A stretch of DNA of 64,000 nt from Acidobacteriota bacterium (GCA_016192845.1 JACPTI010000091.1:11444-75443), one strand, 5' to 3'. Positions 2,485-64,000 are shown, numbered from the stretch's first letter. Notes: generated by a model not told the origin, from the sequence alone. Numbers and translations are program-made.

Positions 2485-3486
2485 ATGTTCTCCAACGACC
2501 TCGCCATCGACCTTGGAACGGCCAACACCTGCGTCTTCGCACGCGGCCAGGGCATCGTCCTGAGCGAGCCGTCGATCGTGGCGTTCAACACGGTCAGCGA
2601 CCGGATCGAGGCGGTCGGCAGCGAAGCAAAGGCGATGGTCGGGCGGACTCCGGGCTCGATTACCGCCGTCAAGCCGATGCGGGACGGCGTGATCGCCGAT
2701 TTCGACGCCGCCGAGAAGATGCTCGGCTATTTCATCCGGAAGGCTCACGGGCGGCGGCGGTTCGTGCGGCCGCGGGTGGTCATCGGCGTGCCGTCGCAGA
2801 TCACCCAGGTGGAGCGCCGGGCCGTCAAGGACAGCGCCTTCCGCGCGCGCGCCAGCGAGGTGTACCTCATCGAGGAAGGAATGGCGGCGGCGATCGGCGC
2901 GGGGCTGCCGATCGTGGAGGCGTGCGGGAACATGATTGTCGACATCGGGGGCGGGACGACCGATATCGCGGTCATCTCCCTGGCCGGCGTCGTCTACAGC
3001 CGCTCGGTGCGCGTCGCCGGCAACGCCATGGACGACGCGATTGCGAATTACGTGAAACGTGAGAAGGACCTGCTCATCGGCGAGCGCACGGCGGAGCAGA
3101 TCAAGATCGAGCTCGGGTCGGCGGCGCCGCTGGCCGAGCGGAAGGAAATGGAAGTCAAGGGGCGCCACGTCATCGAGGGCAAGCCGGTGACGATCACGCT
3201 CGACGACGGCGAGGTGCGTGAGGCGCTGGGGGAACCGGTCCGGCAGATCGTGCAGGCCGTGCGCAACGCGCTCGAACAGACGCCGCCGGAGCTTGCGGCG
3301 GATCTCTGCGACCGCGGCATCGTCCTGAGCGGCGGCGGGGCCCTCCTGCGCAACCTCGACGCGCGGCTCCGGCAGGAGACCGGCGTGCCGGTACAGGTGG
3401 CCGAGGATCCGTTGTCGTCGGTGGTGCTTGGCGCGGGCAAGATGCTGTCCGACTTCGCGCTGCTGCGCAAGGTCTGCCTGGATTAG
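2485..3486 (+). CDS. mreB: Rod-shape determining actin homologue MreB
   Basis: [18 protein letters not shown]..., [27 protein letters not shown] chose the in-frame ATG at 2485 rather than the ORF-track start at 2407. Confidence 0.9.
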
Positions 3487-3503
3487 CGAGGCAAGCGGCT
3501 GCC

Positions 3504-3594
3504 AGGCTACCTACCAGCTACCAGCCACCGGCTACCAGCTACCGGCTACCGGCTACCAGCTACCAGCTACCAGCTACCAGCTACCAGCTACCAG

Positions 3595-3596
<2 letters not shown>
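3504..3596. repeat. Direct tandem heptamer array, CTACCAG x about 13 (variants CCACCGG, CTACCGG)
   Basis: Read directly. Units are in phase from 3511 to 3594. The array lies between the mreB stop (3484-3486) and the convergent ferredoxin stop (3595-3597). No complementary arm is present. Confidence 0.95.
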
Positions 3597-3951
<355 letters not shown>

Positions 3952-3977
3952 GCGGCTATGTTAACGTAGCCGTCTGA

Positions 3978-4505
3978 ATGCCCGACGCGCCCGCGACACC
4001 CCGACCCTCGCAACTCTGGAAGCGGCTGTCACCCGATCGCAAGCTGCAGGCGGCGGAGGCGTTCTGGCGCGACGAGAACGCCGCGTCCGAGCAGGCGGAC
4101 GCGATTGCGGCGATCGCGCAGCGGATCCGGTTCCGCGTGAAGAGCGTCCACGCGATGCCGCTCGAAAAGAAAGTCCGGCAGCTTCTCGCGCTGCCCGCCG
4201 TCTCTGAAGCCGTCGCCGCGCGGCTTCTCGTGGCGTATCACCTGGCGCATCAGCGCCCGATGATGGGCCGCTTTCTCGACGCGCTGGGCATCGCCCACGA
4301 GGACGGCCTCATCGCCGACGAAAACCTCGCCGCGCCGCCGCCGGACCGTCTGCGCGCCGCGGCGCAGACGCTCGCCTCATCGTGTCCCGCCGACGAGGTG
4401 TCGCTCTATTTTTCGACGCTGCTGTGGCAGGACCCCGAGACATGGAGCAGCCTGGCGGACCTCCCGCAGGTCCGCGAGTCGACTCCGGCGCCGCAGCGCT
4501 CCTGA
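3978..4505 (+). CDS. Conserved hypothetical protein
   Basis: 175-aa ORF with balanced composition (..AFWRDENAASEQADAIAAIAQRIRFRVKSVHAMPLEKKVRQLL..). No family recognised. Confidence 0.55.
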   Translation: MPDAPATPRPSQLWKRLSPDRKLQAAEAFWRDENAASEQADAIAAIAQRIRFRVKSVHAMPLEKKVRQLLALPAVSEAVAARLLVAYHLAHQRPMMGRFLDALGIAHEDGLIADENLAAPPPDRLRAAAQTLASSCPADEVSLYFSTLLWQDPETWSSLADLPQVRESTPAPQRS

Positions 4506-4514
4506 GGCATTCCC

Positions 4515-5252
4515 ATGGACTGGATGACGACGCCGGAGGGGTGGATTGCCCTCCTGACGCTGACCGTACTGGAGATCGTCCTCGGCATCGACAACGTCAT
4601 CTTCATCTCCATTCTCGCCGGAAAGCTGCGGCCGGAGGAGCGCGGCCGCGCGCGCAGGATCGGCTTGACCCTCGCGATGCTGATGCGGATTGCGCTGCTG
4701 CTGTCGATCACGTGGGTCATGCGGCTGACCTCCCCGCTCTTTGCCGTGGCGGGGCAGGACATCTCCGGGCGCGATCTGATTCTGATCGTCGGCGGGCTGT
4801 TCCTGCTGGCCAAGAGCACGTACGAGATTCACGACAAGCTCGAGGGCGAGGAAGGGCACGGATCAGCCAGGGTCGCGGCCTCGTTCGCCTCGGTCATCGT
4901 CCAGATCATGCTGCTCGACATCGTGTTTTCGCTCGACTCGGTGATCACGGCGGTCGGCATGGCGGAGGACGTGGTCGTGATGATTCTCGCGGTCGTCGTC
5001 GCGGTGGCGGTGATGCTCGTCTCCTCCGGACCGATCGCGGCGTTCGTCGACCGACACCCGACAGTGAAGATGCTGGCGCTCAGCTTTCTGCTGCTGATCG
5101 GAGTGTCACTCGTCGCCGAAGGGTTCGACCAGCACATCCCGAAGGGCTACATCTACTTCGCGATGGGCTTCTCGGTCTTCGTCGAGATGATCAATCTGCG
5201 GGTGCGCGCCAAAGCGCCTCCTGTGCATCTCCACCAGGCGTACACGCAGTAG
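4515..5252 (+). CDS. TerC-family integral membrane protein
   Basis: LEIVLGIDNVIFISIL and a second DSVITAVG motif. Several hydrophobic helices. Confidence 0.85.
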   Translation: MDWMTTPEGWIALLTLTVLEIVLGIDNVIFISILAGKLRPEERGRARRIGLTLAMLMRIALLLSITWVMRLTSPLFAVAGQDISGRDLILIVGGLFLLAKSTYEIHDKLEGEEGHGSARVAASFASVIVQIMLLDIVFSLDSVITAVGMAEDVVVMILAVVVAVAVMLVSSGPIAAFVDRHPTVKMLALSFLLLIGVSLVAEGFDQHIPKGYIYFAMGFSVFVEMINLRVRAKAPPVHLHQAYTQ

Positions 5253-5275
5253 GTGCGAACTTCGACGTCGTCTAA

Positions 5276-5947
5276 CTAACGGTCTGACTCCAGGATCATA
5301 CGTATCCAGTTCGCCACGCGCGCGCCGACGCTGGCGTACGTGTGCGCCGGCGGAACGCCTCGAGTTCCCAAGGAGTGATCGCCGCCAGCAACGACGTCGA
5401 GCGTTACTGGCGCCTGCATGGTGTCGAGCACGGGTGCCAGCTCGGCGGGTGTTCCAAACGGATCGCGTTCACCCTGCACAACGAGCATCGGGATCTCGAT
5501 GGCCGGCAGATGCGCCAAACGCAGTTGATGCGGCTTGCCGGGGGGGTGAAGGGGATACCCGAGTGCGAACACGCCCTTCAGCGGTTCCCCGGCGGCGGCG
5601 AGGTGCGTCGCGATGCGTCCGCCCAGGGATTTCCCGCCCGCGAAGAGTGCGTCAATGCGGGGGCGGGATTCGCGCGCCATGGCGATGACCTGCCGGAAAC
5701 AATCCTCGAGCGTTGCCGGCGGATCCGGGACGCGCCGTCTCTGGGCCATGTACGGGAAATCGAACGTCACGACGTCGATGTGCGATTCGGCGAGCCGGCG
5801 GGCGACATTGACGATGAACGGATGGCGCTGGCCGGCGCCCGCGCCGTGCGCCAACACCACGCGCGCGAGAGGTGATTCCGTAGAAGCCGAATAGCGGCTG
5901 GCAGTCGTGCGATGTGCACCGACGATCACGTCGAATTCCGTCGTCAT
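5276..5947 (-). CDS. Alpha/beta-fold hydrolase (dienelactone-hydrolase-like, COG3571-type)
   Basis: LAHGAGAG..., nucleophile elbow GGKSLGG, C-terminal GGDHSL. Confidence 0.75.
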   Translation of the reverse strand: MTTEFDVIVGAHRTTASRYSASTESPLARVVLAHGAGAGQRHPFIVNVARRLAESHIDVVTFDFPYMAQRRRVPDPPATLEDCFRQVIAMARESRPRIDALFAGGKSLGGRIATHLAAAGEPLKGVFALGYPLHPPGKPHQLRLAHLPAIEIPMLVVQGERDPFGTPAELAPVLDTMQAPVTLDVVAGGDHSLGTRGVPPAHTYASVGARVANWIRMILESDR

Positions 5948-33735: not shown

Positions 33736-33739
<4 letters not shown>

Positions 33740-34704
33740 TTGGCTTTGGGCTTTCGGCTGTGAGCTTTGGGCCGTTCAGGTTTGATGCCGGAGGCGATGA
33801 GCACGACGAACGGGTCGTGGCTCTGGCGGGCGCCCACCTGCACCCGGACGTCGCGTACGCCGGCACCCATGAGCAGCCGCTCGAGCGCGGCCTCGCTGAA
33901 GCCGAGCCATCTGTCGCCGAACCGGGTTCGTACCCACTGCTGATCGTGTTCGCGGAGGTCGAGCACGAGGAGCCGGCCGCCCGGCCGCAGCACGCGGACC
34001 GCTTCGGCGAGCGCTTCTTCCGGATCGACCGCGTGGTGCAGCGCCTGTGAGAGGAGCGACACGTCCACCGAGGCGTCGCGCAGCGGCAGGCGGGCCAGGT
34101 CCCCCTTTTTCCACCGGACGTTGATGACTCGGCGCCGCGCCGCCAGCGCCTTGGCGCGCTGCAGCACTTCTTCCGACCGGTCGATCGCGTAGACCGTCCG
34201 CGCCCAGCGTGCCGCTTCGAGCGTCAAGTACCCCTCGCCGCAGCCGATGTCGGCCACGTCGAGCGGCGGCAGCAGGTGCCCGAGCGCCCGCGCCCAGGCG
34301 GCCCAGCTCCGCCCGGGCACGAGCTGGCGCAGGTCGCCGTGCGTCTCGAAATTCTCCTTCCGGTGGCGCAGGACCTCCTGCAGGCGCGCCTCGTCTTCTC
34401 GCACCGCCGGATCGCCGTCGGCCGCGGCAAACTGCGCCTCCAGCAGCGCCCATAAGGGCGTTGGTCCGTTGCGGGGCTGCTCGTCGGCCAGCCGGTAGTA
34501 GACGTAGCCCCCCTCGCGCTCCTCGCGGACGAGTCCCGCTTCCTTCAGCAGCCCAAGATGCCGTGAGACACCCGATTGGGCGACCGCCAGAATCCCGGTG
34601 AGCTCGCTGACGTTGAAGCGATCCCGGGCGAGCACCCGCAGCAGGCGCAGGCGCGTGCCGTCGGCCAGCAGGCGAAAGAGGGCGGAAGCTCGACGCACGG
34701 ACAT
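33736..34704 (-). CDS. ArsR-type wHTH + SAM-methyltransferase-like domain regulator (SahR-like), copy 1
   Basis: ..[41 protein letters not shown].., then DIGCGEGYL...[11 protein letters not shown]. The stop overlaps the metH start (ATGA at 33736-33739). Confidence 0.75.
33739..33780. repeat. Direct heptamer array (TTGGGCT-type x6) forming the 3' end of the SahR-like gene
   Basis: Units in phase from 33739. It encodes the basic tail [15 protein letters not shown] and abuts the metH start codon. Confidence 0.85.
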
Positions 34705-34710
34705 CTGTAA

Positions 34711-34726
34711 ATCTACATATGTTGAT
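34711..34726. promoter_or_regulatory. Near-palindrome ATCTACATATGTTGAT just upstream of SahR-like copy 1 (candidate operator)
   Basis: 14 of 16 positions are palindromic, in an AT-rich patch 7 nt upstream of the ATG. It shares the hexamer GTTGAT with the site at 54736-54752. Confidence 0.3.
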
Positions 34727-34789
34727 ACAGAAGGTCAATCTGCGCGTTGAGATCCCGCCACAAATGTCGGTTTTCCGCGCGTTCCGCCG

Positions 34790-51682: not shown

Positions 51683-52335
51683 CGGTTGCGCCTCCGGTCC
51701 TCTTCCGGCTCGACGCGGAAGTCGTCGAACCATGCCGTCGCGCCGCCGCCCGACCAGACGCCGGCGCGCCCGCCCTCCGTGAAGGTCCGGTCGCGCACCC
51801 GCATCACCCCGATGCCCCCCAGCGACACGCGGATGTCGTCGTCATCCTGGACGACGCGGAGGCTGTGCCAGGCCGAGTCGTCGAGCTCGAGCTCGTCCTC
51901 CTCGTCGAGGCGGATCCGGTTGCCGCGGACGACGCGGTACAGGGCGAGCTCCTGCGCGCGCAGGTCGAGCGCGGCGACGTAGAAGTTCTCGGCGTCCTGG
52001 TAGCGCCAGACGAGGCCGCCGACGCGCTCGCCGCCGGTCAGCTTGAGCCGGACCGACGCGCGCATCTGCGCGGGATGCGGCGTCTCGAGCACGGCAAGCG
52101 CGAAGCCGCCCGCACCCGCCGGGTCGGCCAGATGCGTCAGGTAATGGTTGGATCCTTCGGCGCGGACGAGCCAGCGCCCCGGCGTCTGCTGCCGCGCCAC
52201 CGCGAACGCAAAGCCCTGTGGCGGTGCGCCGATCGAGTCATCGTCGAACGTGCGCACGGCGACCTGCGCGCTCGCCGCGGCGATCGCCAGTGCCGTGGCC
52301 GCCACGATCGTCAGTGGCGTTCGAAGGTGGGTCAC
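51679..52335 (-). CDS. Secreted beta-sandwich (LamG/DUF1080-like) protein, first gene of the RR/HK operon
   Basis: Signal peptide MTHLRTPLTIVAATALAIAAASAQ. ..GLVWRYQDAENFYVAALD...WHSLRVV..D..I.V...G..AWFDDFRVEP. Confidence 0.5.
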   Translation of the reverse strand: MTHLRTPLTIVAATALAIAAASAQVAVRTFDDDSIGAPPQGFAFAVARQQTPGRWLVRAEGSNHYLTHLADPAGAGGFALAVLETPHPAQMRASVRLKLTGGERVGGLVWRYQDAENFYVAALDLRAQELALYRVVRGNRIRLDEEDELELDDSAWHSLRVVQDDDDIRVSLGGIGVMRVRDRTFTEGGRAGVWSGGGATAWFDDFRVEPEEDRRRNR

Positions 52336-52433
52336 GGGATCGGTCGATTGTAGCCGACCTCACGGGCAACGGCAGCGCGGGCGTCTCTTCATCGTGCCTT
52401 CATGTTCGGTCGACTACGCTGAGGCGTCCCTCG

Positions 52434-54662
52434 ATGATCAGGTCCCACTGCCGCCGCCTCCTGTGTGCCTGTGCCGCACTCGCTGCCCCTGCACTCGCGC
52501 TCGCGCAGAACCCCGCGCCGGCGCCTCGCACCATTCAGGCGCTGCGTCTCGGCGAAGACGATGTCATCCGGCTGGACGGCGTGCCGGATGAGACGGTATG
52601 GGAACGCGCGCAGCCCGCCACCGGGTTCTTGCAGCGCGATCCGAACAATGGCGAGCCCGCCACTGAGCGCACGGAGGTGCGCCTCGCCTTCGACGTGGAC
52701 CGGCTCGTCCTCAGCATCATCTGCTACGACGGCGAGCCCAATCGCGTGCTCGGCAATCAGATGCAGCGTGATCGCTCGTTCGAGGCCGACGATCGCTTCA
52801 TGTGGACGATCGATACGTTCCTGGACGGGCGAACCGGCTACTACTTCGAAATCAATCCCGCCGGCGCGATGGGCGACGGGCTGGTCGACCCGGCGGCGAA
52901 CCAGGGATGGACCAATGACCTCGGCGCCGGCATCAACCGGTCGTGGGACGGGATCTGGCTTGCGCGCGTGCGGCGGACGATGACCGGGTGGACGGCAGAA
53001 GTCGAGATCCCGTTCGGGACCGTCAACTTCGATCCAAACGCGGACGCGTGGGGGATCAACTTCCAGCGCACCATCCGGCGCAAGAACGAAGACGTGCTGT
53101 GGAGCGGACACGCGCGGAACCAGGGGCTCGCGCGCATGACCAACGCGGGACGCGTCGAGGGGCTCGGCGGGATCTCGCAAGGCCTCGGGCTCGACCTGAA
53201 GCCGTACGCCGTTGGTAACGTGTCGTCGGCGCCGGGGCGCGGACGCCCGGATTCGCTCTCGACAGGCGACATCGGCGTCGACGCGTTCTACAACCTGACG
53301 CCGGCGCTGCGGGCCAACCTCAGTGTGAACACCGATTTTGCAGAGACCGAGGTCGATCAGCGCCGCGTCAACCTGACGCGGTTCCCGCTGTTCTTCGAAG
53401 AGAAGCGCGACTTCTTCCTCGAAGGGTCGAGCTTCTTCGACTTCTCGCGCGAAACCGGCCGGGCGGTCATGCCGTTCTTCTCACGGCGCATCGGCCTCGA
53501 CGACCGCGGCAGGCCGCAGGGCATCGACGCGGGCGCGAAGCTGACGGGACAGGCCGGTGCGTTCGACATCGGCGTGCTGCAGGTCCGGACCTCGTCCGCC
53601 CACGCGATTGGCGAGGACTTCTCGGTGCTCCGGGTGCGGCGGCGTGCCTTCGAGCAGTCGTACGTCGGCGGCCTGTACACGCGCCGGTCGGCGCGCATCA
53701 GCGGCGACGTGGACCGCCATACCGCCGGCCTCGACTTCGAGCTGGCGACGTCGCGGTTCCGCGGCGACCAGAATCTCGAGCTGAGCGGGTTCTACGTCTG
53801 GACGAGCAGCCCCGAGCGCGCCGACGACACCGCGGCCTATGGCTTCCGCCTCGCGTATCCGAACGATCCGTTCTCGGCGGAACTCGCGGTGCGGGAAATA
53901 CAGCCCGGCTACGCCCCGGCGCTCGGTTTCGTCGAGCGACGCGGCTACAGGCGGATGGCGCCGAACGCAGAATACTCGTGGCGGCCGCGCGATCATCCCT
54001 GGCTGCGCTCGCTCGGCTGGGAGGTCGAGCTCGACTTCATCAACGACCCGCACAATCGCCCCCTCACCCGCGAGGTCTCGCTGTCACCGCTCGAGATCAA
54101 CTTCGAGGATGGAAGCTGGCTGGGGTTCCAGATCGCGCCGCAGTACGAGCGGCTCGAGGAGGACTTCGAAATCCACGACGACGTCGTGCTGCCCACCGGC
54201 GCGATCTATCGGTTCACGAGATACGACCTCCGTGGGTCGACGGCCGACCATCGGATGCTCAGCGTCGGCTCCAATATCTCCGTGGGCTCGTTCTTCTCCG
54301 GCGACCGCCGCGAGTACGGCGTGGAACTGGGCATCCGCCCGCGCCGCGGTGTGGCGCTGACGCTAGAGGCCGAGCACAACGTGCTGGAGCTCGCCGAGGG
54401 CCGTTTTGATACCGACGTCTTCCGCATGCGTGCGGACACGCAGTTCAGCCCGTGGGTCTCGCTGGCCAACAATCTTCAGTACGACTCGGTCAGCCGTCTG
54501 CTCGGCTGGCAGATGCGGTTCCGGTGGATCCGGCGGCCCGGCAACGACCTCTATCTCGTCTATACGCACAACTGGCGCGAGGTGCTGGAGACGGGGCTGC
54601 GCCGTCTGACGACGCTGGACAATCGCCTCGCGACGAAACTGGTGTATACGCTGCGGTTTTGA
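52434..54662 (+). CDS. DUF5916 / carbohydrate-binding-family-9-like outer-membrane-associated protein
   Basis: Signal-like MIRSHCRRLLCACAALAAPALALAQ. ..DGVPDETVWERAQPATGFLQRDPNNGEPATERTEVRLAFD.. ATG at 52434. Confidence 0.65.
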   Translation: MIRSHCRRLLCACAALAAPALALAQNPAPAPRTIQALRLGEDDVIRLDGVPDETVWERAQPATGFLQRDPNNGEPATERTEVRLAFDVDRLVLSIICYDGEPNRVLGNQMQRDRSFEADDRFMWTIDTFLDGRTGYYFEINPAGAMGDGLVDPAANQGWTNDLGAGINRSWDGIWLARVRRTMTGWTAEVEIPFGTVNFDPNADAWGINFQRTIRRKNEDVLWSGHARNQGLARMTNAGRVEGLGGISQGLGLDLKPYAVGNVSSAPGRGRPDSLSTGDIGVDAFYNLTPALRANLSVNTDFAETEVDQRRVNLTRFPLFFEEKRDFFLEGSSFFDFSRETGRAVMPFFSRRIGLDDRGRPQGIDAGAKLTGQAGAFDIGVLQVRTSSAHAIGEDFSVLRVRRRAFEQSYVGGLYTRRSARISGDVDRHTAGLDFELATSRFRGDQNLELSGFYVWTSSPERADDTAAYGFRLAYPNDPFSAELAVREIQPGYAPALGFVERRGYRRMAPNAEYSWRPRDHPWLRSLGWEVELDFINDPHNRPLTREVSLSPLEINFEDGSWLGFQIAPQYERLEEDFEIHDDVVLPTGAIYRFTRYDLRGSTADHRMLSVGSNISVGSFFSGDRREYGVELGIRPRRGVALTLEAEHNVLELAEGRFDTDVFRMRADTQFSPWVSLANNLQYDSVSRLLGWQMRFRWIRRPGNDLYLVYTHNWREVLETGLRRLTTLDNRLATKLVYTLRF

Positions 54663-54786: not shown

Positions 54787-55722
54787 ATGGTCGCGATTCT
54801 CGACCACATGTCGGCGCTGGCCGACCCGACGCGCTGCCGCATCCTGCTGCTGCTCGAACAGCATGAGCTGACGGTCTCAGAGCTCTGCGCCGTGTTGCGG
54901 CTGCCGCAGTCGAGCGTCAGCCGGCACCTGAAGACCCTGGCCGACGACGACTGGGTGGTCTCGCGCCGCGACGGTACGAGCCGCTTCTACAGCATGCCGC
55001 TCGACGATCTCGACTCCGGGGCGAGCCGGCTGTGGCCGCTCATCCGGGAGCAGGTGGCCGGCACGGCGACTGCCGGCCAGGACGAGCAGCGACTTCGCGG
55101 CGTGCTCGCGCGGCGGCGCGCGCGGTCGCAGGAATTTTTTGCGAACGCCGCAGCCGGATGGGACCGGCTCCGCGGCGACCTGTTTGGCGACACGTTTTAT
55201 CTGTGGGCGCTGCTGGGCCTCATCGATCCCTCGCTCACCGTGGGCGACCTGGGATGTGGAACGGGGCAACTCGCCGAGACGCTCGCGCCGCACGTCCACC
55301 GCGTGATTGCGGTCGATGCCTCGCCCGACATGCTGACGGCGGCGCGGACGCGGCTGGGCGGATTCCCGAACGTCGACGTCCGGCAGGGCGAGCTCGAGAC
55401 GCTGCCGCTCCAGGCGGGGGAGCTCGATGCGGCGCTGCTGTCGCTGGTGCTGCACTACTCGCCCGATCCGGCGCGCGCGCTGGCCGAAGTGGCGCGCGTC
55501 CTCCAGCCGGGCGGCCGCGTGCTCATCGTCGACATGCTGCCGCACGACCGCGAGGAGTACCACCAGCAGATGGGCCACGTGTGGCTTGGGTTTTCGGAGA
55601 AGCAGATCTCACGGTTCCTGACAGGAGCGGGGTTCGGCAACGTGCGCGTCCGCGCGCTGCCGGTCGATCCCGATGCGAAAGGGCCGGCGCTGTTTGCAGC
55701 AATCGCGACACGGCACCGGTGA
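54787..55722 (+). CDS. ArsR-type wHTH + SAM-methyltransferase-like domain regulator (SahR-like), copy 2
   Basis: ..ALADPTRCRILLLLEQHELTVSELCAVLRLPQSSVSRHLKTL.., then DLGCGTGQL...LQPGGRVLIVD. Confidence 0.75.
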   Translation: MVAILDHMSALADPTRCRILLLLEQHELTVSELCAVLRLPQSSVSRHLKTLADDDWVVSRRDGTSRFYSMPLDDLDSGASRLWPLIREQVAGTATAGQDEQRLRGVLARRRARSQEFFANAAAGWDRLRGDLFGDTFYLWALLGLIDPSLTVGDLGCGTGQLAETLAPHVHRVIAVDASPDMLTAARTRLGGFPNVDVRQGELETLPLQAGELDAALLSLVLHYSPDPARALAEVARVLQPGGRVLIVDMLPHDREEYHQQMGHVWLGFSEKQISRFLTGAGFGNVRVRALPVDPDAKGPALFAAIATRHR

Positions 55723-55809: not shown

Positions 55810-57312
<1,503 letters not shown>

Positions 57313-57325
57313 ATGCGACATTTCA

Positions 57326-57581
57326 CCAGAGCTCGGTTGGGTGGCGCAGCAAATCCCGGTTCCGGTGGCCGGACCGCGCTGCGAGGGCGCCGTGGGCCGC
57401 GTGACGCTCGGGTCGCGCCGTACGCGTTCGCTCCGCGAACGCCGCTTCGTACGATTTGCCCCACCAGCTTCGATTCGAGCGGCGCTCAACCTCGGGGATC
57501 CCCTGAGCCTTCTCGCGCGGTCAGGCGATCCCTGTCGGCCACCTCCACAGGGTTTTGCTGCGCCACCCAACCGAGCTCTGG
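57326..57581. mobile_element. 256-bp MITE-like element bounded by perfect 28-bp terminal inverted repeats
   Basis: CCAGAGCTCGGTTGGGTGGCGCAGCAAA (57326-57353) has its exact reverse complement at 57554-57581. There is no coding capacity between the two repeats. Confidence 0.6.
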
Positions 57582-57651
57582 AATTAGATCGTTTGCCAGC
57601 GTAGATCATCGGTCCTTAGACTGCACGCACCCATGCGACAAAGGAGCGTGC

Positions 57652-57825
57652 ATGGTTCAGCGCCGACAGCGCGAGCGCAGTGTGTTCGAAGTGTTGTTGT
57701 CCGATGGTCACAAGCTGTGGCCGGATTGGTTGCGACGGATCGACACCTTGCTCGAGGACCAGGCGCGCATGAGCGCCAGCGCTGGTTATTTCTGCGCGGT
57801 CATTTCTTCACCAGAAAGTAGCTAG
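57652..57825 (+). pseudogene. Transposase N-terminal remnant (IS5/IS1182-like, InsH_N/DUF772-type N-terminus), truncated after about 37 aa
   Basis: AGGAG RBS. MVQRRQRERSVFEVLLSDGHKLWPDWLRRIDTLLEDQ resembles the ..(L/F)(W/F)E..LP....L...L..(I/V)D.LLDD.. N-terminus I associate with this transposase group. The remainder is unrelated and short. Confidence 0.35.
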
Positions 57826-58361
57826 GCCGCCTGTCAAGCAGATCGTTCAGGCGATTAACGCGGTGCCCCAGTCCCGCGGCGGGGCCCGGGTCGGAGATCG
57901 CGCCGGTGAGACGACGACCGGCGCCGCCAAGGCGGCACGCAGGGGGCATCGACCCGCGGGGCAAAGGGATGATGGGAATGGTCGAGCATCATCGTGCGAC
58001 AGCGGCGCCTCTGCTGCGGTGAGCTCGGCAGCTCCACGCCGATCGCCCGCGCGCCGGCTTCAGTCTCGCCGTCCGCGAGGTGTTGCGGCAGGCGTTGGCC
58101 CTGCGCGAAGCCGTACCTCGACGACGACGTTGTCCTGCTGTGAACGGTGCCCCGGCGCCCAGGTGAAAGCGGCGACAGCCCTCAGAGGAGATCAGTGTCG
58201 GGGCGGCCTCGTGAGAATCCCCGTGACGTCTGGCCTGTCTGGGGGACCGGTCGAATAACCCCGCCCCACGCTGGGAAAAATTTCGCATAAGACCGACGAG
58301 AATGAAAAAGACGACGGCTTCTGACCAGCTTTTGTGCGAACATCCCTGTGTCGAAGAGGAA

Positions 58362-59258
58362 ATGGTACCGAAGTCCTTTGAGTACTTTTCACCTGGCAGC
58401 CTCAGTGAAGTCCTATCGTTGCTTCGCAAGTATAAGGACGATGCCAGACTTCTCGCTGGCGGCCACAGCCTTATACCGTTAATGAAGTTGCGCTTAGTTT
58501 CACCAAAATATGTCATCGACCTCAGGAAAATACCGAATCTTTCGTACGTCAGGGAGAAAGGTGGAAAGCTCCTCATCGGGGCTATGACCACACATCGCCA
58601 AATAGCAACCTCACCGTTAATCCGGTCTAAATCCGAAATCCTGGCCGAGACTGCCGAGGTAATCGGAGACCCTCAGGTTAGAAACCTTGGCACCATTGGG
58701 GGTTCTATTGCTCATGCGGATCCGGCCGGAGATTACCTACCAACCCTGCTAGCCGCAGGCGGGCAATTGAAGGCTATCAGCGTTAGAGGTCAGAAGACGT
58801 TCAAGGCTGAAGATTTCTTTCACGACATGTTCACAACCGCTCTCAAGCAGGACGAAATCCTCACGGAGATTAGCGTTCCGATAGCACCAGCTCTAAGTGG
58901 AGGCACATACCTGAAGTTGGAGCGCAAATCAGGAGACTTCGCAGTTGTCGGGGTAGCCGTTCAGCTCACGTTAGACGAAAGTAACGTTTGTAATCGGGTC
59001 AAGATCGCTTTAGGAGCCGTTGGTCCCACGGTTATTCGAGCCTTCGAGGCGGAGAACGTGTTACGAGCCAATACTGTGGATGACGCCTTAATAAATGAAG
59101 CGGCTAAAAGGACTTCCGATGCCTCCGAACCGATTTCGGACCTGCGTGGGTCGGCCGAATACAAGAAGGAGATGGTACGGGTGTTTACTCAAAGAGCCTT
59201 GGTTAAAGCTCGCGATAGGGCCAGAAGCAATTTGCACAAAATCTCAGGAACACGGTAG
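58362..59258 (+). CDS. Molybdenum hydroxylase medium (FAD-binding) subunit, CoxM-like
   Basis: MVPKSFEYFSPGSLSEVLSLL....ARLLAGGHSLIPLMKLRL...GTIGGSIAHADPAGD. The ATG at 58362 follows GAAGAGGAA. Low G+C. Confidence 0.85.
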   Translation: MVPKSFEYFSPGSLSEVLSLLRKYKDDARLLAGGHSLIPLMKLRLVSPKYVIDLRKIPNLSYVREKGGKLLIGAMTTHRQIATSPLIRSKSEILAETAEVIGDPQVRNLGTIGGSIAHADPAGDYLPTLLAAGGQLKAISVRGQKTFKAEDFFHDMFTTALKQDEILTEISVPIAPALSGGTYLKLERKSGDFAVVGVAVQLTLDESNVCNRVKIALGAVGPTVIRAFEAENVLRANTVDDALINEAAKRTSDASEPISDLRGSAEYKKEMVRVFTQRALVKARDRARSNLHKISGTR

Positions 59259-59309
59259 TCGAATGGTGTTCTGGTAGTGTGCAAAGGCGCAACGTGGTGG
59301 TTATGGCTT

Positions 59310-59750
59310 ATGCGCTTTGAGGGGCAATCTGAAGTAAAAGCGCCTCGAGAAAGAGTGTGGGATTTCATTATAAACCCACACTTAATCTCCCAATGTTTCC
59401 CGGGGCTTCAGAAGCTGGAGATTGTTGACGCAAACAGATTTAACGCCACGGTGGAGGCGGGGGTATCCTTCATAAAGGGGACTTTTAAGGTGCAATCCAC
59501 TATGGCGGAGTCATCCCCACCTAGTCATGCAAGGATGGTTGCGCGAGGAAGCGGTGTTGCGAGTTCCGTGGATGTGGATACAACGATACATCTTGAGGAG
59601 CGCGGCGCCGCGGCTACTGTGATGATTTGGAAAGCGGACATTCTCCTAGGAGGCCTAATTGCCAGTGTGGGCTCCCGGCTTGTAGCTGCGGCGACTGATA
59701 AGGTAACGAAGGAGCTCTTTGAACGCATACGGCTACATGTGGAGAGATGA
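59310..59750 (+). CDS. SRPBCC/CoxG-like subunit
   Basis: MRFEGQSEVKAPRERVWDFIINPHLISQCFPG... is a typical CoxG N-terminus. Confidence 0.75.
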   Translation: MRFEGQSEVKAPRERVWDFIINPHLISQCFPGLQKLEIVDANRFNATVEAGVSFIKGTFKVQSTMAESSPPSHARMVARGSGVASSVDVDTTIHLEERGAAATVMIWKADILLGGLIASVGSRLVAAATDKVTKELFERIRLHVER

Positions 59751-59792
59751 TATGGGATTGTCAGATTGGTCACTTGCTGGATGTGAATTCGA

Positions 59793-60299
59793 ATGAAACG
59801 AAAACGACTGATCTCGCAGGATAAGCCTCACCTCTACCCGATTCGAGTGAAGGTGAACGGCCTCGCATTTGAAAGGGAGGCTGAGGCACGCATGCTCTTG
59901 GTCTATTTCCTTAGGGATATTCTGGGCCTCAAGGGAACCCATGTGGGGTGTGACACAACGAATTGCGGTGCGTGCACGGTCCTACTTAACGGTGTGAACG
60001 TCAAGTCTTGTACAATGTTTGCCGTTCAGGCAGATGGTGCTGAGATTCTAACAATCGAGGGGTGTGCCAAGAACGGCAGGTTGCATCCGATCCAAGAAGC
60101 ATTTTGGGACAATCATGGTTTACAATGTGGGTACTGCACTCCCGGTTTAGTCTTATCCGGTTACGCGCTTCTCAGAGACAATCCCGATCCTACCGAGGAG
60201 GAGATTCGGAAGGGAATCTCCGGACACCTGTGCATCTGCACGGGATACGTCAATATTATTAATTCCATTCGAGCTGCGGCAGCTAAGATGAAGCAGTAG
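59793..60299 (+). CDS. Molybdenum hydroxylase small ([2Fe-2S]x2) subunit, CoxS-like
   Basis: GCDTTNCGACTV...C and QCGYCTPG...HLCICTGY cysteine clusters. Confidence 0.9.
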   Translation: MKRKRLISQDKPHLYPIRVKVNGLAFEREAEARMLLVYFLRDILGLKGTHVGCDTTNCGACTVLLNGVNVKSCTMFAVQADGAEILTIEGCAKNGRLHPIQEAFWDNHGLQCGYCTPGLVLSGYALLRDNPDPTEEEIRKGISGHLCICTGYVNIINSIRAAAAKMKQ

Positions 60300-60331
60300 G
60301 TGGGGGCACACCTACGTGTGGTTGGTGCAGA

Positions 60332-62776
60332 ATGCGATCTAACTTTCAAGGATGGGTCGGTAAATCGCTGAAGAGGAGGGAGGACCTGAGGCTGCTGACC
60401 GGTGACACGGCTTTTGTTGATGATATTGAACTGAAAGACACATTGCACGTCGCTGTCCTCAGAAGCACTTACGCTCATGCGAGGATTACGAGACTGGAGG
60501 CAACTGAAGCTTTATTGCGTCCAGGGGTTGTGGCCATCGTCCACGGCGAAGACGCCAAGAGTATGAGCAAACCGCTACCCGCTTACGCTGTGGCTCATCT
60601 GAAGCCGGAGGAATATTGCTTGGCCGTCGGGAAGGTTCGATACGTGGGTGAGCCGGTGGTTGCGGTTGCGGCTAAGGACAGAGGGTTGGCCGAGGATGCC
60701 CTGGAGTTCATAGACGTTGCGTACGAACCTTTGGAACCGATCCTGGATCCGGAGAAGGCTATGCAGCCAGCGGGTCCCTTGGTGTACGACTCTTTCGGAA
60801 CGAATGTTGTAGCCCAGTATAAGGCTACGTGGGGCGACGTGGATCAGGCCTTCACGGAAGCCGATCTAATCGTTACAGAGAGGCTCAAGCTGCACAGTTA
60901 CAGTTCAACACCGCTGGAAACCGTTGCTTGCATTGCGAGCTACAACATGGTCTCGCGAGATCTAACGATTTACAGCAACACCCAGATGGTTGGACACGTG
61001 ATTCCAGTCCTTTCGGATTCGCTAGGAATACCGACGGAGAGGATTCGATTCATTGTACAGGATATAGGTGGTGGCTTCGGTCTGAAAACCCGCCCTTGGA
61101 AGCCGCTGTTGATCGCATGCCTGCTATCGGTCAAGACGGGACGTCCAGTGAAGTACGTTGAGGATAGAAGGGAGCATCTTCTGGCAGCGGGTCGTACTGC
61201 TGCAGCGATTTTCGATTGTGAGGTCGCGGTCAAAAACGACGGCAGCATTTCGGGTTTCAGGTTGCGGGACATTAACGACGACGGTGCCTCTCTGACCTAT
61301 GCCGGTACCTACGGATCCATGCACGCGACTCTTATCAACGGATGTTACCGCGTTAGAAATGTGGCGTGGGAGAGCTACTCGGTTCTTACGAATAAATGTC
61401 CTTCTATGCCGAACCGGGGAGTGGGCAAGCCCGGCATATGTTACGTCGTTGAAAGGATGATCGATATCGTCGGCAGGCGGTTAGGTATTGATCCAATTGA
61501 GGTCCGTCGCCGAAACTACATTGAACCTAACGAATTTCCGTATGCAACCCCGAGCGGGCGCGTATACGACAGCGGCAATTACGAGGCGACGTTGAGGCGA
61601 GCCCTTCAGATTCTAGACTATGAAACAGTCAGGAAGGAGCAATCTAGACTGCGGGGAGAGGGAAGGTACATCGGCGTCGGCCTGTCAACCTATGTTCACG
61701 GCGCGTCGGCTACGGCTCAGGAGATAGAGGGAACGACCATCAAGATGGATTCGAGAGGTCGTGTTACCGTCCTCGCCGGCTCACCTGATATGGGCACCGG
61801 CCACAAAACAGCCCTGTCCCAAATTATCGCCGACGAGCTGGGGATTACGCCTGAGGATATCAACGTCCTCGAATTCGATTCGCAGGTCTCCCCTTGGACT
61901 CCGTATTCCGGCACTCACGCCAACAAGTTTTCTGGCCCTGATGTGGAGTCGGCAGTTGCCGCCGCTGGAGTCATTCGTGACAAATTGCTGAAGTTGGCTG
62001 CTCATATGCTCGACTCTGAGCTAGGTGACTTAGTGCTCAGGGACGGTCGGGTATACGTTAAGAGTAGACGAGAGCGATTCACGACGGTGGGTGAAGTCGC
62101 GAAGATGGCTTACCAAAATCCAGGATTCCTACCTCCAGATACGACGCCGGGGCTTGCGGCGACATGTATCCTTAACAGTCCTAGAGCACTGGAGTCTTTC
62201 GTTGCCGACGAAAAGTACACGGTCGGCGCGATTCATCAACTCGTTGCCGGAAGAGGTGGTTCACCTACGAGCTTCATGACGTATCCTAACTCAGCCCATA
62301 TCGCTGTGGTAGAAGTAGACATCGAGACAGGGCAGGTCGAGATATTGCGGTACATCGTGGTACACGACAGCGGGAAAGTGATCAATCCAATGCTAGCTGA
62401 AGCTCAGGTACATGGAGGCGCCCTCCATGGCATAGGAGCCACACTTTTAGAGGAATTCGTGTACGACTCGAACGGTCAGCTGTTGACTTCGACATTTATG
62501 GATTATCTTAAGCCTACCTCTCTGGAGGCGCCGCACTTCGAGGTTGAGCATTTAGAGACACCTTCCCCGAGATCGGTACTCGGCATCAAGGGGATAGGGG
62601 AGGGAGAAGCATTGGGTCCACTGGCGGCGATCGGAAACGCCGTGGATGACGCCCTATCTCCCTTCAACGTGAAAATCACAGAGCTCCCAATAACTCCTGA
62701 AAGAGTACATAGGCTCATAAAACAAAGCAGCTTACTACCTATCCCATATTCCTTATTCCCCGCGCGACGCTGTTGA
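60332..62776 (+). CDS. Molybdopterin-binding large subunit of a xanthine-dehydrogenase-family hydroxylase, CoxL-like but not CO-dehydrogenase form I or II
   Basis: ..GKSLKRREDLRLLTGDTAFVDDI.., ..IGGGFGLK.., ..GIGEGEALGP... The active-site loop reads TNKCPSMPNRGVGKP. The last 12 codons or so overlap the convergent ppc relic. Confidence 0.9.
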   Translation: MRSNFQGWVGKSLKRREDLRLLTGDTAFVDDIELKDTLHVAVLRSTYAHARITRLEATEALLRPGVVAIVHGEDAKSMSKPLPAYAVAHLKPEEYCLAVGKVRYVGEPVVAVAAKDRGLAEDALEFIDVAYEPLEPILDPEKAMQPAGPLVYDSFGTNVVAQYKATWGDVDQAFTEADLIVTERLKLHSYSSTPLETVACIASYNMVSRDLTIYSNTQMVGHVIPVLSDSLGIPTERIRFIVQDIGGGFGLKTRPWKPLLIACLLSVKTGRPVKYVEDRREHLLAAGRTAAAIFDCEVAVKNDGSISGFRLRDINDDGASLTYAGTYGSMHATLINGCYRVRNVAWESYSVLTNKCPSMPNRGVGKPGICYVVERMIDIVGRRLGIDPIEVRRRNYIEPNEFPYATPSGRVYDSGNYEATLRRALQILDYETVRKEQSRLRGEGRYIGVGLSTYVHGASATAQEIEGTTIKMDSRGRVTVLAGSPDMGTGHKTALSQIIADELGITPEDINVLEFDSQVSPWTPYSGTHANKFSGPDVESAVAAAGVIRDKLLKLAAHMLDSELGDLVLRDGRVYVKSRRERFTTVGEVAKMAYQNPGFLPPDTTPGLAATCILNSPRALESFVADEKYTVGAIHQLVAGRGGSPTSFMTYPNSAHIAVVEVDIETGQVEILRYIVVHDSGKVINPMLAEAQVHGGALHGIGATLLEEFVYDSNGQLLTSTFMDYLKPTSLEAPHFEVEHLETPSPRSVLGIKGIGEGEALGPLAAIGNAVDDALSPFNVKITELPITPERVHRLIKQSSLLPIPYSLFPARRC

Positions 62777-63236
62777 TCGTCGGCAGCAGCGCCGCCTGAC
62801 CTGCGGGTCGGGCCGCTGCCGCAGACGCCGCCGCAGCTCGATCTGCGCCAGATTGATCGGATCGACGTACGCCGATCGCGCGCGGCAAGGGTGTGCGCGA
62901 GGCGGTTGTACTGGTGGACGAGCGTGCGACGCGCCGCTTCCGTCGGATGCGCTGTGAGCACCCGCTCGATCCGCAGCCGGCAGGCCGCCGCGTGCAGCCG
63001 CTCGGGCTGAATGCCCGCGGCCACCAGACGAGGGAAAACCTCTTCGCACGACCCACGCTGCGGCGGCGCCTGGGGATCCCGCCGATGGACCCGGCGTCGC
63101 CGGATCCGGTGGTGCTGCTCGGCGATATTGGCAGGCTGAGAAAATGGGCAAAGGCGCGCGCCACCGGCAGCGCCGCATCGACGGGCACGTGCAGCCGCAC
63201 GTCGTCGCGGAGCGGGTTGTTGGGATCGGCGTCCAT
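62739..63236 (-). pseudogene. Relic of phosphoenolpyruvate carboxylase (ppc): N-terminal and extreme C-terminal motifs only, with at least 2 frameshifts
   Basis: Three minus-strand frames carry PEPC pieces. These are MDADPNNPLRDDVRL..LPVARAFAHFLSL; then, after a 1-nt shift, ANIAEQHHRIRRRR..; then RIERVLTAHPTEAARRTL (PEPC signature); then ..YVDPINLAQIELRRRLRQ..; then ..ALLPTINSVARGIRNMG* (the C-terminal ..GIAAGxRNTG* motif). The total is about 165 codons, versus about 900 for an intact PEPC. Confidence 0.6.
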
Positions 63237-63294
63237 ATCCCGATCGTAGACACGTTGCAGGACGCAGGTATCATGAGGACTCAGCCGTAGGACC

Positions 63295-64000
63295 ATGTTC
63301 GATCCCGGCTCCCGTGTCGGCCCGTACGAAATCACCGCGACCGTTCGCCTCGGGACGGGTGAGGCCTACCGTGCGTACGACCACGAGCACCGGCGCGAGG
63401 TGCTGCTCCAGGTGTTCGGCGCCGAGTTCGACGCGCATCCGGGTCGGCTCAGCCGCTTCGAGCGCGACGTCTGGTCTACGACGACGCTCGCGCATCCGAA
63501 CATTCTCGACATCTACGACATCAGCACCGACGCGGCCGCTCCCTACATCGTCTCGGAGCCGCTCACGGGCGATACGCTTCGCGCGAGGCTCGATGCCCGC
63601 GCGATGCCGCTGGTCGACGCGGCGCGCTGCGCCGTGCAGATCGCGCGTGCGCTCCTCGCCGCCCGCCGCCGGCACGTCCGCCACGGTCATCTCAGCGCCG
63701 ACAACGTGGCGTTCGCCCCGGACGGGCGCGTAGTCGTGCTCGGGTTCGGCCTGGCGTCGCTGGCGCCGCCGGAGCGCGTCGTATCCGATCTCCGGGGATT
63801 TGCGGCGCTCGTACGAGCCCTGCTGCGCGCGCGCCCGCCCGCGGCGCGCGTCGGCCGACGGGTCGCATGGACGGCGGCCATGCTCGTGGGCCTTGCAGTG
63901 ATCGCCGCGATGCTGACCTCGACGCGCGATGTCGAGGTGCTGGAGCCGCCGCCGACGAGCCCGGCGGAGCGTGCCGGCAGCGCCGCAACGCCTTCGACAG
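63295..64000 (+). CDS. Membrane-anchored Ser/Thr-kinase-like protein with degenerate catalytic motifs (pseudokinase), 3' end outside window
   Basis: MFDPGSRVGPYEITATVRLGTGEAYRAYDHEHRREVLLQVF...HVRHGHLSADNV...VLGFGLAS, then the TM segment AWTAAMLVGLAVIAAML. The frame is open to nt 64000. It is not in the ORF track because no stop falls in the window. Confidence 0.6.
   Translation, partial: MFDPGSRVGPYEITATVRLGTGEAYRAYDHEHRREVLLQVFGAEFDAHPGRLSRFERDVWSTTTLAHPNILDIYDISTDAAAPYIVSEPLTGDTLRARLDARAMPLVDAARCAVQIARALLAARRRHVRHGHLSADNVAFAPDGRVVVLGFGLASLAPPERVVSDLRGFAALVRALLRARPPAARVGRRVAWTAAMLVGLAVIAAMLTSTRDVEVLEPPPTSPAERAGSAATPST

Follow-up and report, generated by a model that had tools for sequence, protein, structure and literature searches.

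A horizontally acquired molybdenum hydroxylase operon with an apparently archaeal-lineage catalytic core in a groundwater acidobacterium

A four-gene operon in a low-G+C block

A stretch of 64,000 nucleotides (nt) from an Acidobacteriota bacterium (GCA_016192845.1 JACPTI010000091.1:11444-75443), hereafter the window, with coordinates counted from its first letter, contains a 4.5-kb low-G+C foreign block (58275-62757) that carries four genes for a molybdenum hydroxylase. A first-pass annotation had described these genes as a self-contained coxM-coxG-coxS-coxL-like operon, tightly packed in the order M-G-S-L and recently acquired from a lower-G+C donor. Pfam searches confirmed both the order and the completeness of the operon, with recognizable domains in all four products, gaps of 32-51 nt between the genes and all four open reading frames (ORFs) intact. 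All are encoded on the plus strand, beginning with a medium subunit (M, 58362-59258, 298 amino acids (aa)) that binds flavin adenine dinucleotide (FAD) and matches PF00941 and PF03450 (FAD_binding_5 and CO_deh_flav_C). A further ATG lies upstream at 58302; the M protein of a second copy of the block, found on a contig termed L001 (described below), begins MVPKSF, a GAGGAA Shine-Dalgarno sequence precedes 58362, and the latter position is probably the real start. There follow a CoxG/SRPBCC-family subunit (G, 59310-59750, 146 aa; PF06240, COXG), for which comparison with L001 makes 59310 the probable start and a GTG at 59277 an unlikely alternative, and a [2Fe-2S] small subunit (S, 59793-60299, 168 aa; PF01799 (Fer2_2) / PF00111) in which the cysteine motifs of both 2Fe-2S clusters are legible. 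The last gene encodes a molybdopterin-binding large subunit (L, 60332-62776, 814 aa) with matches to PF01315, PF02738 and PF20256 (Ald_Xan_dh_C, MoCoBD_1 and MoCoBD_2; E = 5e-25 to 1e-71), and its final codons and stop fall on the host side of the junction, where they run antisense to a relic of the phosphoenolpyruvate (PEP) carboxylase gene ppc.

The block differs from its surroundings by sliding-window G+C, by G+C at third codon positions (GC3) and by tetranucleotide frequencies, such that the abrupt edges and the deviant codon usage claimed in the first-pass annotation both hold. G+C content is 0.523 within 58275-62756 vs 0.679 for the remaining window, and every 1-kb interval with G+C <0.58 falls inside the island, those outside having a mean of 0.678 (standard deviation 0.030, minimum 0.587). 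Along the sliding-window profile, G+C drops from 0.69 to 0.48-0.58 between ~58250 and ~62750 and then returns to ≥0.70. At a resolution of 40 nt, the left switch lies at 58250-58290 and the right one at 62740-62760, each being complete in 20-40 nt. The four island genes have GC3 values of 0.52-0.58 vs 0.83-0.94 for twelve flanking genes, and raw tetranucleotide frequencies of island and host correlate at only r = 0.40 where each 4.5-kb chunk of host DNA reaches r ≥0.93. The part common to the window and L001 spans 58352-62727, and it is preceded in the window copy by an AT-rich leader of 77 nt (58275-58351, plus strand) that L001 does not have.

Physical reality of the junctions

Because the source is a groundwater metagenome assembly, the first rival we considered was a chimera created in assembly or binning, in which a piece of lower-G+C contig had been joined at short shared words. 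Besides the origin of the window in a metagenome-assembled genome (MAG), the abruptness of the switches and a 13-of-15-nt microhomology at both ends speak for such an artefact. Against it, 97-100% of sampled words from both junction stretches were present in runs from at least 6 samples of one study, and we aligned per-run Logan contigs from four samples, each assembled separately, to 57000-63800. A single 1777-nt contig per sample spanned the left junction in all four (57392-59168, zero mismatches), and the right junction was likewise crossed by a contig in 4/4 samples with 0-2 mismatches (61864-63800, 62284-63274 or 61864-63050). Assembler depth was equal over island and flanks within each sample while ranging over ~7, 24, 35 and 53x across the four, so that the two co-varied over an eight-fold range, and among the Logan contigs of these samples we found none that joined the flanks without the island. 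Contigs over both junctions together with co-varying depth place the block in the chromosome of this organism. In L001, assembled independently from a different run, the block is likewise joined to acidobacterial DNA of 68-72% G+C. The junction-spanning contigs and the depth effectively refute a chimera, to which we give next to no credence.

As to which organism this is, the gene adjoining the island on its left encodes an AhcY that shares 83% identity with its counterpart in a Vicinamibacterales MAG and 77-80% with those of other Acidobacteriota, and a pair of arsR-methyltransferase and ahcY genes is syntenic in the two best AhcY loci. No relative closer than 83% emerged from this AhcY search of genome contigs, and ppc is absent downstream of ahcY at the nearest loci, which leaves no empty site to reconstruct. 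By these protein comparisons the host is a Vicinamibacterales-like acidobacterium from groundwater.

Identity and likely function of the enzyme

The hammerhead a/b domain and two domains binding the molybdenum cofactor (MoCo) in L, adjoined by FAD and two-cluster 2Fe-2S subunits, place the products in the xanthine oxidase family, and the predicted enzyme is a complete heterotrimeric molybdenum hydroxylase (L-M-S) of that family accompanied by a CoxG-type SRPBCC protein. The best NCBIfam models for all three catalytic subunits were those of the archaeal glyceraldehyde dehydrogenase alpha, beta and gamma chains (NF041018-20), with scores that fell below the equivalog cut-offs in every case (alpha 562/790, beta 329/350, gamma 255/290), and thus the island enzyme is a relative of the archaeal glyceraldehyde oxidoreductases (GAOR) and not a member of them. 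The comparison with GAOR1-3 of Sulfolobus tokodaii, a molybdenum-containing glyceraldehyde oxidoreductase of known structure (4ZOH; PMC4726530), bears this out, as the two share the three-subunit L/M/S architecture of the xanthine oxidase family (NF041018/19/20), 4ZOH_A matches L at E = 3e-96, and a Sulfolobus protein with 57% identity falls in the same clade of L sequences. They differ in the active-site loop (PNRGVGKP in L, SYRGAGRP in 4ZOH) and in the scores of all subunits, and the island adds a coxG gene and has a bacterial host.

Whether the operon deserves the name cox depends on the sense of the word. In the generic sense of family membership and of a coxG gene the label stands, and the island shares with CoxMSL of Afipia/Oligotropha carboxidovorans (1N5W) and Hydrogenophaga (1FFU) the three-subunit architecture, the Pfam domains and the coxG-family gene. 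The best solved-structure matches to L were CoxL 8UEM (E = 6e-134), 1T3Q, the CO dehydrogenases (CODHs) 1FFU and 1N5W, 7DQX (a nicotine-pathway dehydrogenase) and 4ZOH. In the narrower sense of a CO dehydrogenase it fails. The active-site loop of L reads TNKCPSMPNRGVGKPG, in which MPNRGVGKP aligns opposite VAYRCSFR of 1FFU, whereas the corresponding stretch is ...GGVAYRCSFRVTE in form I CODH, ...TQSYRGAGRPE in 4ZOH and TNKCPIGAYRGVGFTA in quinoline oxidoreductase. The form I AYRCSFR loop with its Cu-ligating cysteine is thus absent from L, and PNRGVGK does not match the AYRGAGR loop of form II either, only the R-G-x-G core being kept. Under TIGR02416 (aerobic CO dehydrogenase), L scores 494 bits vs a cut-off of 991. 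Since the Cu-binding cysteine is missing, the enzyme is predicted not to be a CO dehydrogenase, nor is it of the AYRGAGR form II type. We rejected a form I assignment on the loop, on the TIGR02416 score and on the lack of coxD/E/F in the 64-kb window. The first-pass annotation had already remarked that maturation genes were missing, and our scan of ~40 genes of the window agreed, revealing no member of the CoxD/E/F, XdhC or MocA families.

Other comparisons give hints about the substrate. Quinoline 2-oxidoreductase (1T3Q) is the second-best structural match (E = 3e-127) and has the most similar loop (TNKCPIGAYRGVGF vs TNKCPSMPNRGVGK), and several relatives of the island enzyme are named 2-furoyl-CoA dehydrogenase (HmfABC) by JGI; identity to the N-heteroaromatic hydroxylases and to HmfABC is nevertheless low and the island carries no pathway genes, so neither lends it a substrate assignment. 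On archaeal-type contigs, relatives of the enzyme sit amid genes for UbiD/UbiX, amidohydrolase_2, class II aldolase, a thiamine pyrophosphate (TPP) enzyme, coenzyme A (CoA) ligase/transferase, cupin and ATP-binding cassette (ABC) transporters, and this setting points to an enzyme that oxidizes aromatic or heteroaromatic acids or aldehydes. No catabolic pathway genes were found on the island itself. Taken as a substrate class predicted from this context, the enzyme most likely hydroxylates or oxidizes an aldehyde or an N-/O-heteroaromatic acid, and electrons would pass via the 2Fe-2S centres and FAD onward to an acceptor.

As a separate observation, molybdenum hydroxylase genes recur on four of the related contigs (L110, L112, L113 and L002) together with UbiD/UbiX, amidohydrolase_2, aldolase II, TPP-enzyme, ornithine cyclodeaminase-like and ABC-transporter genes, apparently as a conserved and uncharacterised catabolic cluster of Nitrososphaerota/Thermoplasmatota-like archaea.

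Ancestry of the operon

Protein homology and phylogeny connected the operon to a lineage that the first-pass annotation had not seen. A search for L among 5.8 billion clustered proteins revealed a single close relative (P0002, 88% identity), and the next proteins were 55-66% identical, with all named ones being archaeal (Nitrososphaerales/Nitrososphaerota, Sulfolobus, Thermoplasmata and 'uncultured archaeon', with Caldarchaeales and Thaumarchaeota somewhat more distant), the best named ones at 56-62%; named bacterial homologues appeared only at 42-46% identity. In a maximum-likelihood tree of 82 L sequences, the window copy and P0002 form a pair (support 100, stem 0.32) within a 39-sequence clade (support 100) whose named or context-typed members are archaeal in 10/10 cases, and all 8 named bacterial sequences fall on the other side. 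Among the related contigs, one has a thermosome gene and another the gene for a Ta0938 protein of Thermoplasma type, and the best counterparts of S (55-61%) and M (49-54%) lie in the same archaeal-type loci as those of L. One such contig, L002, has a G+C content of 0.51 and an L-gene GC3 of 0.57, about the island's own values. Placed by sequence, the catalytic core is of archaeal lineage, its clade being known otherwise from archaea (Nitrososphaerota, Thermoplasmatota, Sulfolobales and Caldarchaeales).

Composition and discordant phylogeny together bear out the claim of a foreign origin in a source of lower G+C, and the block displays the three features by which horizontal transfer is recognized, namely atypical composition, a phylogeny discordant with its host and a patchy distribution. 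Lawrence and Ochman are said to have provided a framework for such compositionally atypical, horizontally acquired operons and their amelioration. The island shares with operons of that type an abrupt shift in G+C and codon usage that agrees with a foreign phylogeny.

Several observations weigh against this account of an acquired operon of archaeal lineage. The donor is unsampled, the stem leading to the pair formed by the window and L001 is long (0.32), and the best identity of L outside the Acidobacteriota is only 66%. The layout M-G-S-L with coxG is the usual bacterial one, where archaeal-type loci have S-L-M or S-L; the named neighbours of M mix archaea and bacteria at 51-57% identity; the island CoxG is only 32% identical to the sole CoxG found in an archaeal-type locus (L110); and a promoter scan detected no sigma-70-like promoter upstream of the island. 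Given the bacterial-type gene order, the mixed neighbours of M and the distant CoxG, an intermediate bacterial donor is quite possible, and the direct donor would then be a moderate-G+C bacterium (~50-56%) whose own M-G-S-L operon traced back ultimately to archaea, the last step being a transfer from bacterium to bacterium. The named neighbours of M include Methylomirabilales, Acidobacteriota and Actinomycetota, as such a donor would predict, and archaeal-type relatives have no such layout. A 5.3-kb Logan contig with a G+C content of 0.56 (L114) also carries, at 3439-5287, a gene for a MocA-like NTP_transf_3 protein followed by M (57%) and S (64%), and may possibly represent a lineage nearer to the direct donor. 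The low-G+C tail of the island, moreover, encodes a canonical bacterial-type PEP carboxylase (PEPC) C-terminus, which would be natural if the donor had a bacterial ppc beside the operon. On the other side, no such bacterium has been sampled, the L clade has only archaea among its named members, and the best matches of S, L and M all lie in archaeal-type loci. We regard a bacterial direct donor as less likely than not.

A second copy and the time of entry

P0002 is encoded on the 6.2-kb contig L001, assembled from another run, which carries the same M-G-S-L block at 85% DNA identity to 58358-62718 of the window. The first 1.7 kb of L001 have a G+C content of 68-72% and encode the C-terminal end of a TonB-dependent receptor together with a protein of 255 aa, for which the best named relatives come from Acidobacteria (86%) and Vicinamibacterales (72%), and its flanks are unrelated to the window on both sides of the block. 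Between the two copies, synonymous divergence (dS) is 0.46-0.64 and the ratio of nonsynonymous to synonymous divergence (dN/dS) is 0.12-0.18, with all four genes intact in both, which indicates that purifying selection has acted ever since they diverged. The copy on L001 is closer to host composition (GC3 0.63-0.66, tetranucleotide r = 0.67, as against 0.40 for the window copy). No further copies were found, and a scan of metagenome contigs with L returned nothing above 38%.

The earlier description of a recent horizontal acquisition therefore stands in part. The horizontal origin holds, but that it was recent and single is unproven given an 85%-identical copy with different flanks, and with two such copies at dS ~0.5 a single recent acquisition is too simple; the block has either been long in the lineage and moved, or entered twice, or hopped between acidobacteria. 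We tentatively entertain, at somewhat less than even odds, that the operon was acquired once, long ago, by an ancestor shared by two Vicinamibacterales lineages, after which it slowly ameliorated and its flanks were rearranged. Such a history fits with both carriers being Vicinamibacterales-like acidobacteria, with the divergence of the copies under purifying selection, with the higher GC3 and tetranucleotide correlation of L001, as partial amelioration predicts, and with the two copies forming a clade on a long common stem. It fits less well with flanks that differ on both sides, with the extreme rarity of the block (just two copies at ≥70% identity in 5.8 billion clustered proteins, and not one in the scan of metagenome contigs), with AhcY-linked loci of other Vicinamibacterales and Acidobacteriota that are without the block, and with a window-copy GC3 that is still ~0.3 under that of the host.

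Junctions and route of integration

The right junction falls at a collapsed ppc pseudogene of ~560 nt (62739-63300, minus strand), recognizable by the PEPcase profile and by its C-terminal tail. The relic covers PEPcase positions 72-163 (E = 3e-20) and then ~860-892 in another frame (E = 0.026), after which the first frame resumes in the tail LLPTINSVARGIRNMG, ended by the stop, such that it retains positions 72-163 plus ~860-919 in all and has been broken by two or more frameshifts and by the internal loss of ~2.1 kb. The tail fits what we take to be the invariant C-terminus of PEPC, canonically ...G(M/L/I)RN(T)G and stop. With this gene collapsed, the organism must rely on a second ppc or on another anaplerotic enzyme.

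The final six codons of ppc, together with its stop (GGA ATA AGG AAT ATG GGA TAG), are low in G+C and antisense to the 3' end of L, and homology between the window and L001 stops at ~62727, 11 nt before the ppc stop. The right switch thus lies within the last ppc codons, with the canonical tail on its low-G+C side. One reading would put the junction just outside the ppc stop, with a tail that is natively AT-rich, which is unlikely because of the codon usage of this genome. In the other reading the tail would be donor DNA, with the crossover within the conserved end of ppc. In one groundwater sample (X1), a T>C change at 62754 turns the end of the ppc tail from GIRNMG into GMRNMG before the stop, nearer to the canonical form, and alters the tail of L too.

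To the left, the stop of ahcY at 57312 is followed by an inverted-repeat element, ~680 nt without a recognizable coding remnant, one copy of a 15-nt repeat and the 77-nt leader. The element, situated between ahcY and the island (57326-57581, 256 bp), has 46-nt terminal inverted repeats (89%), and its k-mer depth in the metagenomes is 2-6x that of the surrounding single-copy DNA, with many loose ends at 57385-57530, which suggests a multi-copy repeat with variants, like a miniature inverted-repeat transposable element. The ~680 nt of high G+C that follow (57582-58258) gave no Pfam match in any frame by which a coding remnant might be recognized, and a short ORF within them (57652-57822, MVQRRQRERSVFEVLL...) matched neither Pfam nor NCBIfam.

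The first-pass annotation had also pointed to a 15-nt imperfect direct repeat as a signature of the junctions. Both copies are present as described and match at 13/15 positions, the left one (CCCCGCCCCACGCTG, 58259-58273, plus strand) on the host side of the left switch and the right one (CCCCGCGCGACGCTG, 62758-62772, plus strand) at the right switch. Such repeats would be att sites or a target-site duplication if the block were a site-specific genomic island, and in favour of this are their position exactly at the two composition switches and a match that two 60-nt junction zones would share in only ~1.5% of random zone pairs (p ~0.015). Looking for the motif elsewhere, we found no enrichment in the window (8 matches vs 5.05 expected; 16% of shuffles reach 8) and no occurrence at the L001 junctions. 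The right copy is, besides, ordinary ppc coding sequence, its minus strand encoding S-V-A-R-G of the C-terminus, and deleting the island with one repeat copy would leave ppc ending in ...SVARGYSTGPPDRP... (SVARGYSTGPP), which is non-canonical. Domains of integrases or transposases were not detected in the island or its flanks, nor was any transfer RNA gene (tRNA) in the window. The weak p value, the lack of enrichment, the absence from L001 and the non-canonical ppc end led us to reject a target-site duplication or att site, so the repeat does not survive as a junction signature and a site-specific island is very improbable. At most the repeat may be microhomology for illegitimate recombination, or it may be due to chance.

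In the integration that we envisage, DNA would have entered with no recognisable gene for mobility and become fixed through illegitimate recombination at the level of microhomology. The insertion site is a piece of core chromosome in decay, lying between ahcY and the ppc relic. Illegitimate and homology-facilitated illegitimate recombination are used here as defined in PMC3240628, the latter having one junction in a homologous stretch and the other at 3-12 bp of microhomology. The island resembles that type in its lack of mobility genes and in having just short similarity at its junctions, and differs from it in having no long homologous anchor, the candidate anchor being at most the last few ppc codons. 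Going further, one might imagine that the four genes travel as an autonomous operon cassette, which Vicinamibacterales acquired as naked DNA from an archaeal or otherwise distant donor and which entered, or moved to, two different chromosomal sites without a mobility gene, with the right crossover in the conserved last codons of ppc and the GIRNMG tail contributed by the donor; we consider this speculative and quite unlikely. If it were true, the tail of the ppc relic would be the footprint of homology-anchored illegitimate recombination between phyla, possibly between domains, in an aquifer community.

Chromosomal neighbourhood

The wider neighbourhood is core chromosome, with mreB, rsgA, dinB, glnA, glnE, metH, speA, thrC, pepF and ahcY. 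Two paralogous genes encoding a fusion of an ArsR-type helix-turn-helix and an S-adenosylmethionine-dependent methyltransferase lie at 33736-34734 by metH and at 54787-55722 by ahcY, and probably regulate the methyl cycle in the manner of SahR. An ORF at 52218-54662 has the same length as L (814 aa) and is unrelated to it in sequence, with a host-like GC3 of 0.85, the equal length being a coincidence.

Significance

Weighing these observations together, we consider it likely, with a probability of roughly 0.78, that the block is a horizontally acquired operon with a catalytic core of archaeal lineage, residing in the chromosome of a Vicinamibacterales-like acidobacterium and encoding an enzyme other than CO dehydrogenase. 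As a case of horizontal operon transfer it is clean, though precedents exist, and it does not represent a new kind of system. Its value is that of a natural example, in which a complete and still-unameliorated redox-enzyme operon of archaeal ancestry, under purifying selection in an acidobacterial lineage without cultivated members, has been verified across independent samples. The two diverged copies and a junction at a decaying core gene also offer material on how operons integrate and ameliorate without mobile-element machinery. Finally, the operon serves as a warning, as annotating such operons as CO dehydrogenase would lead to a false inference of CO oxidation for groundwater Acidobacteriota.

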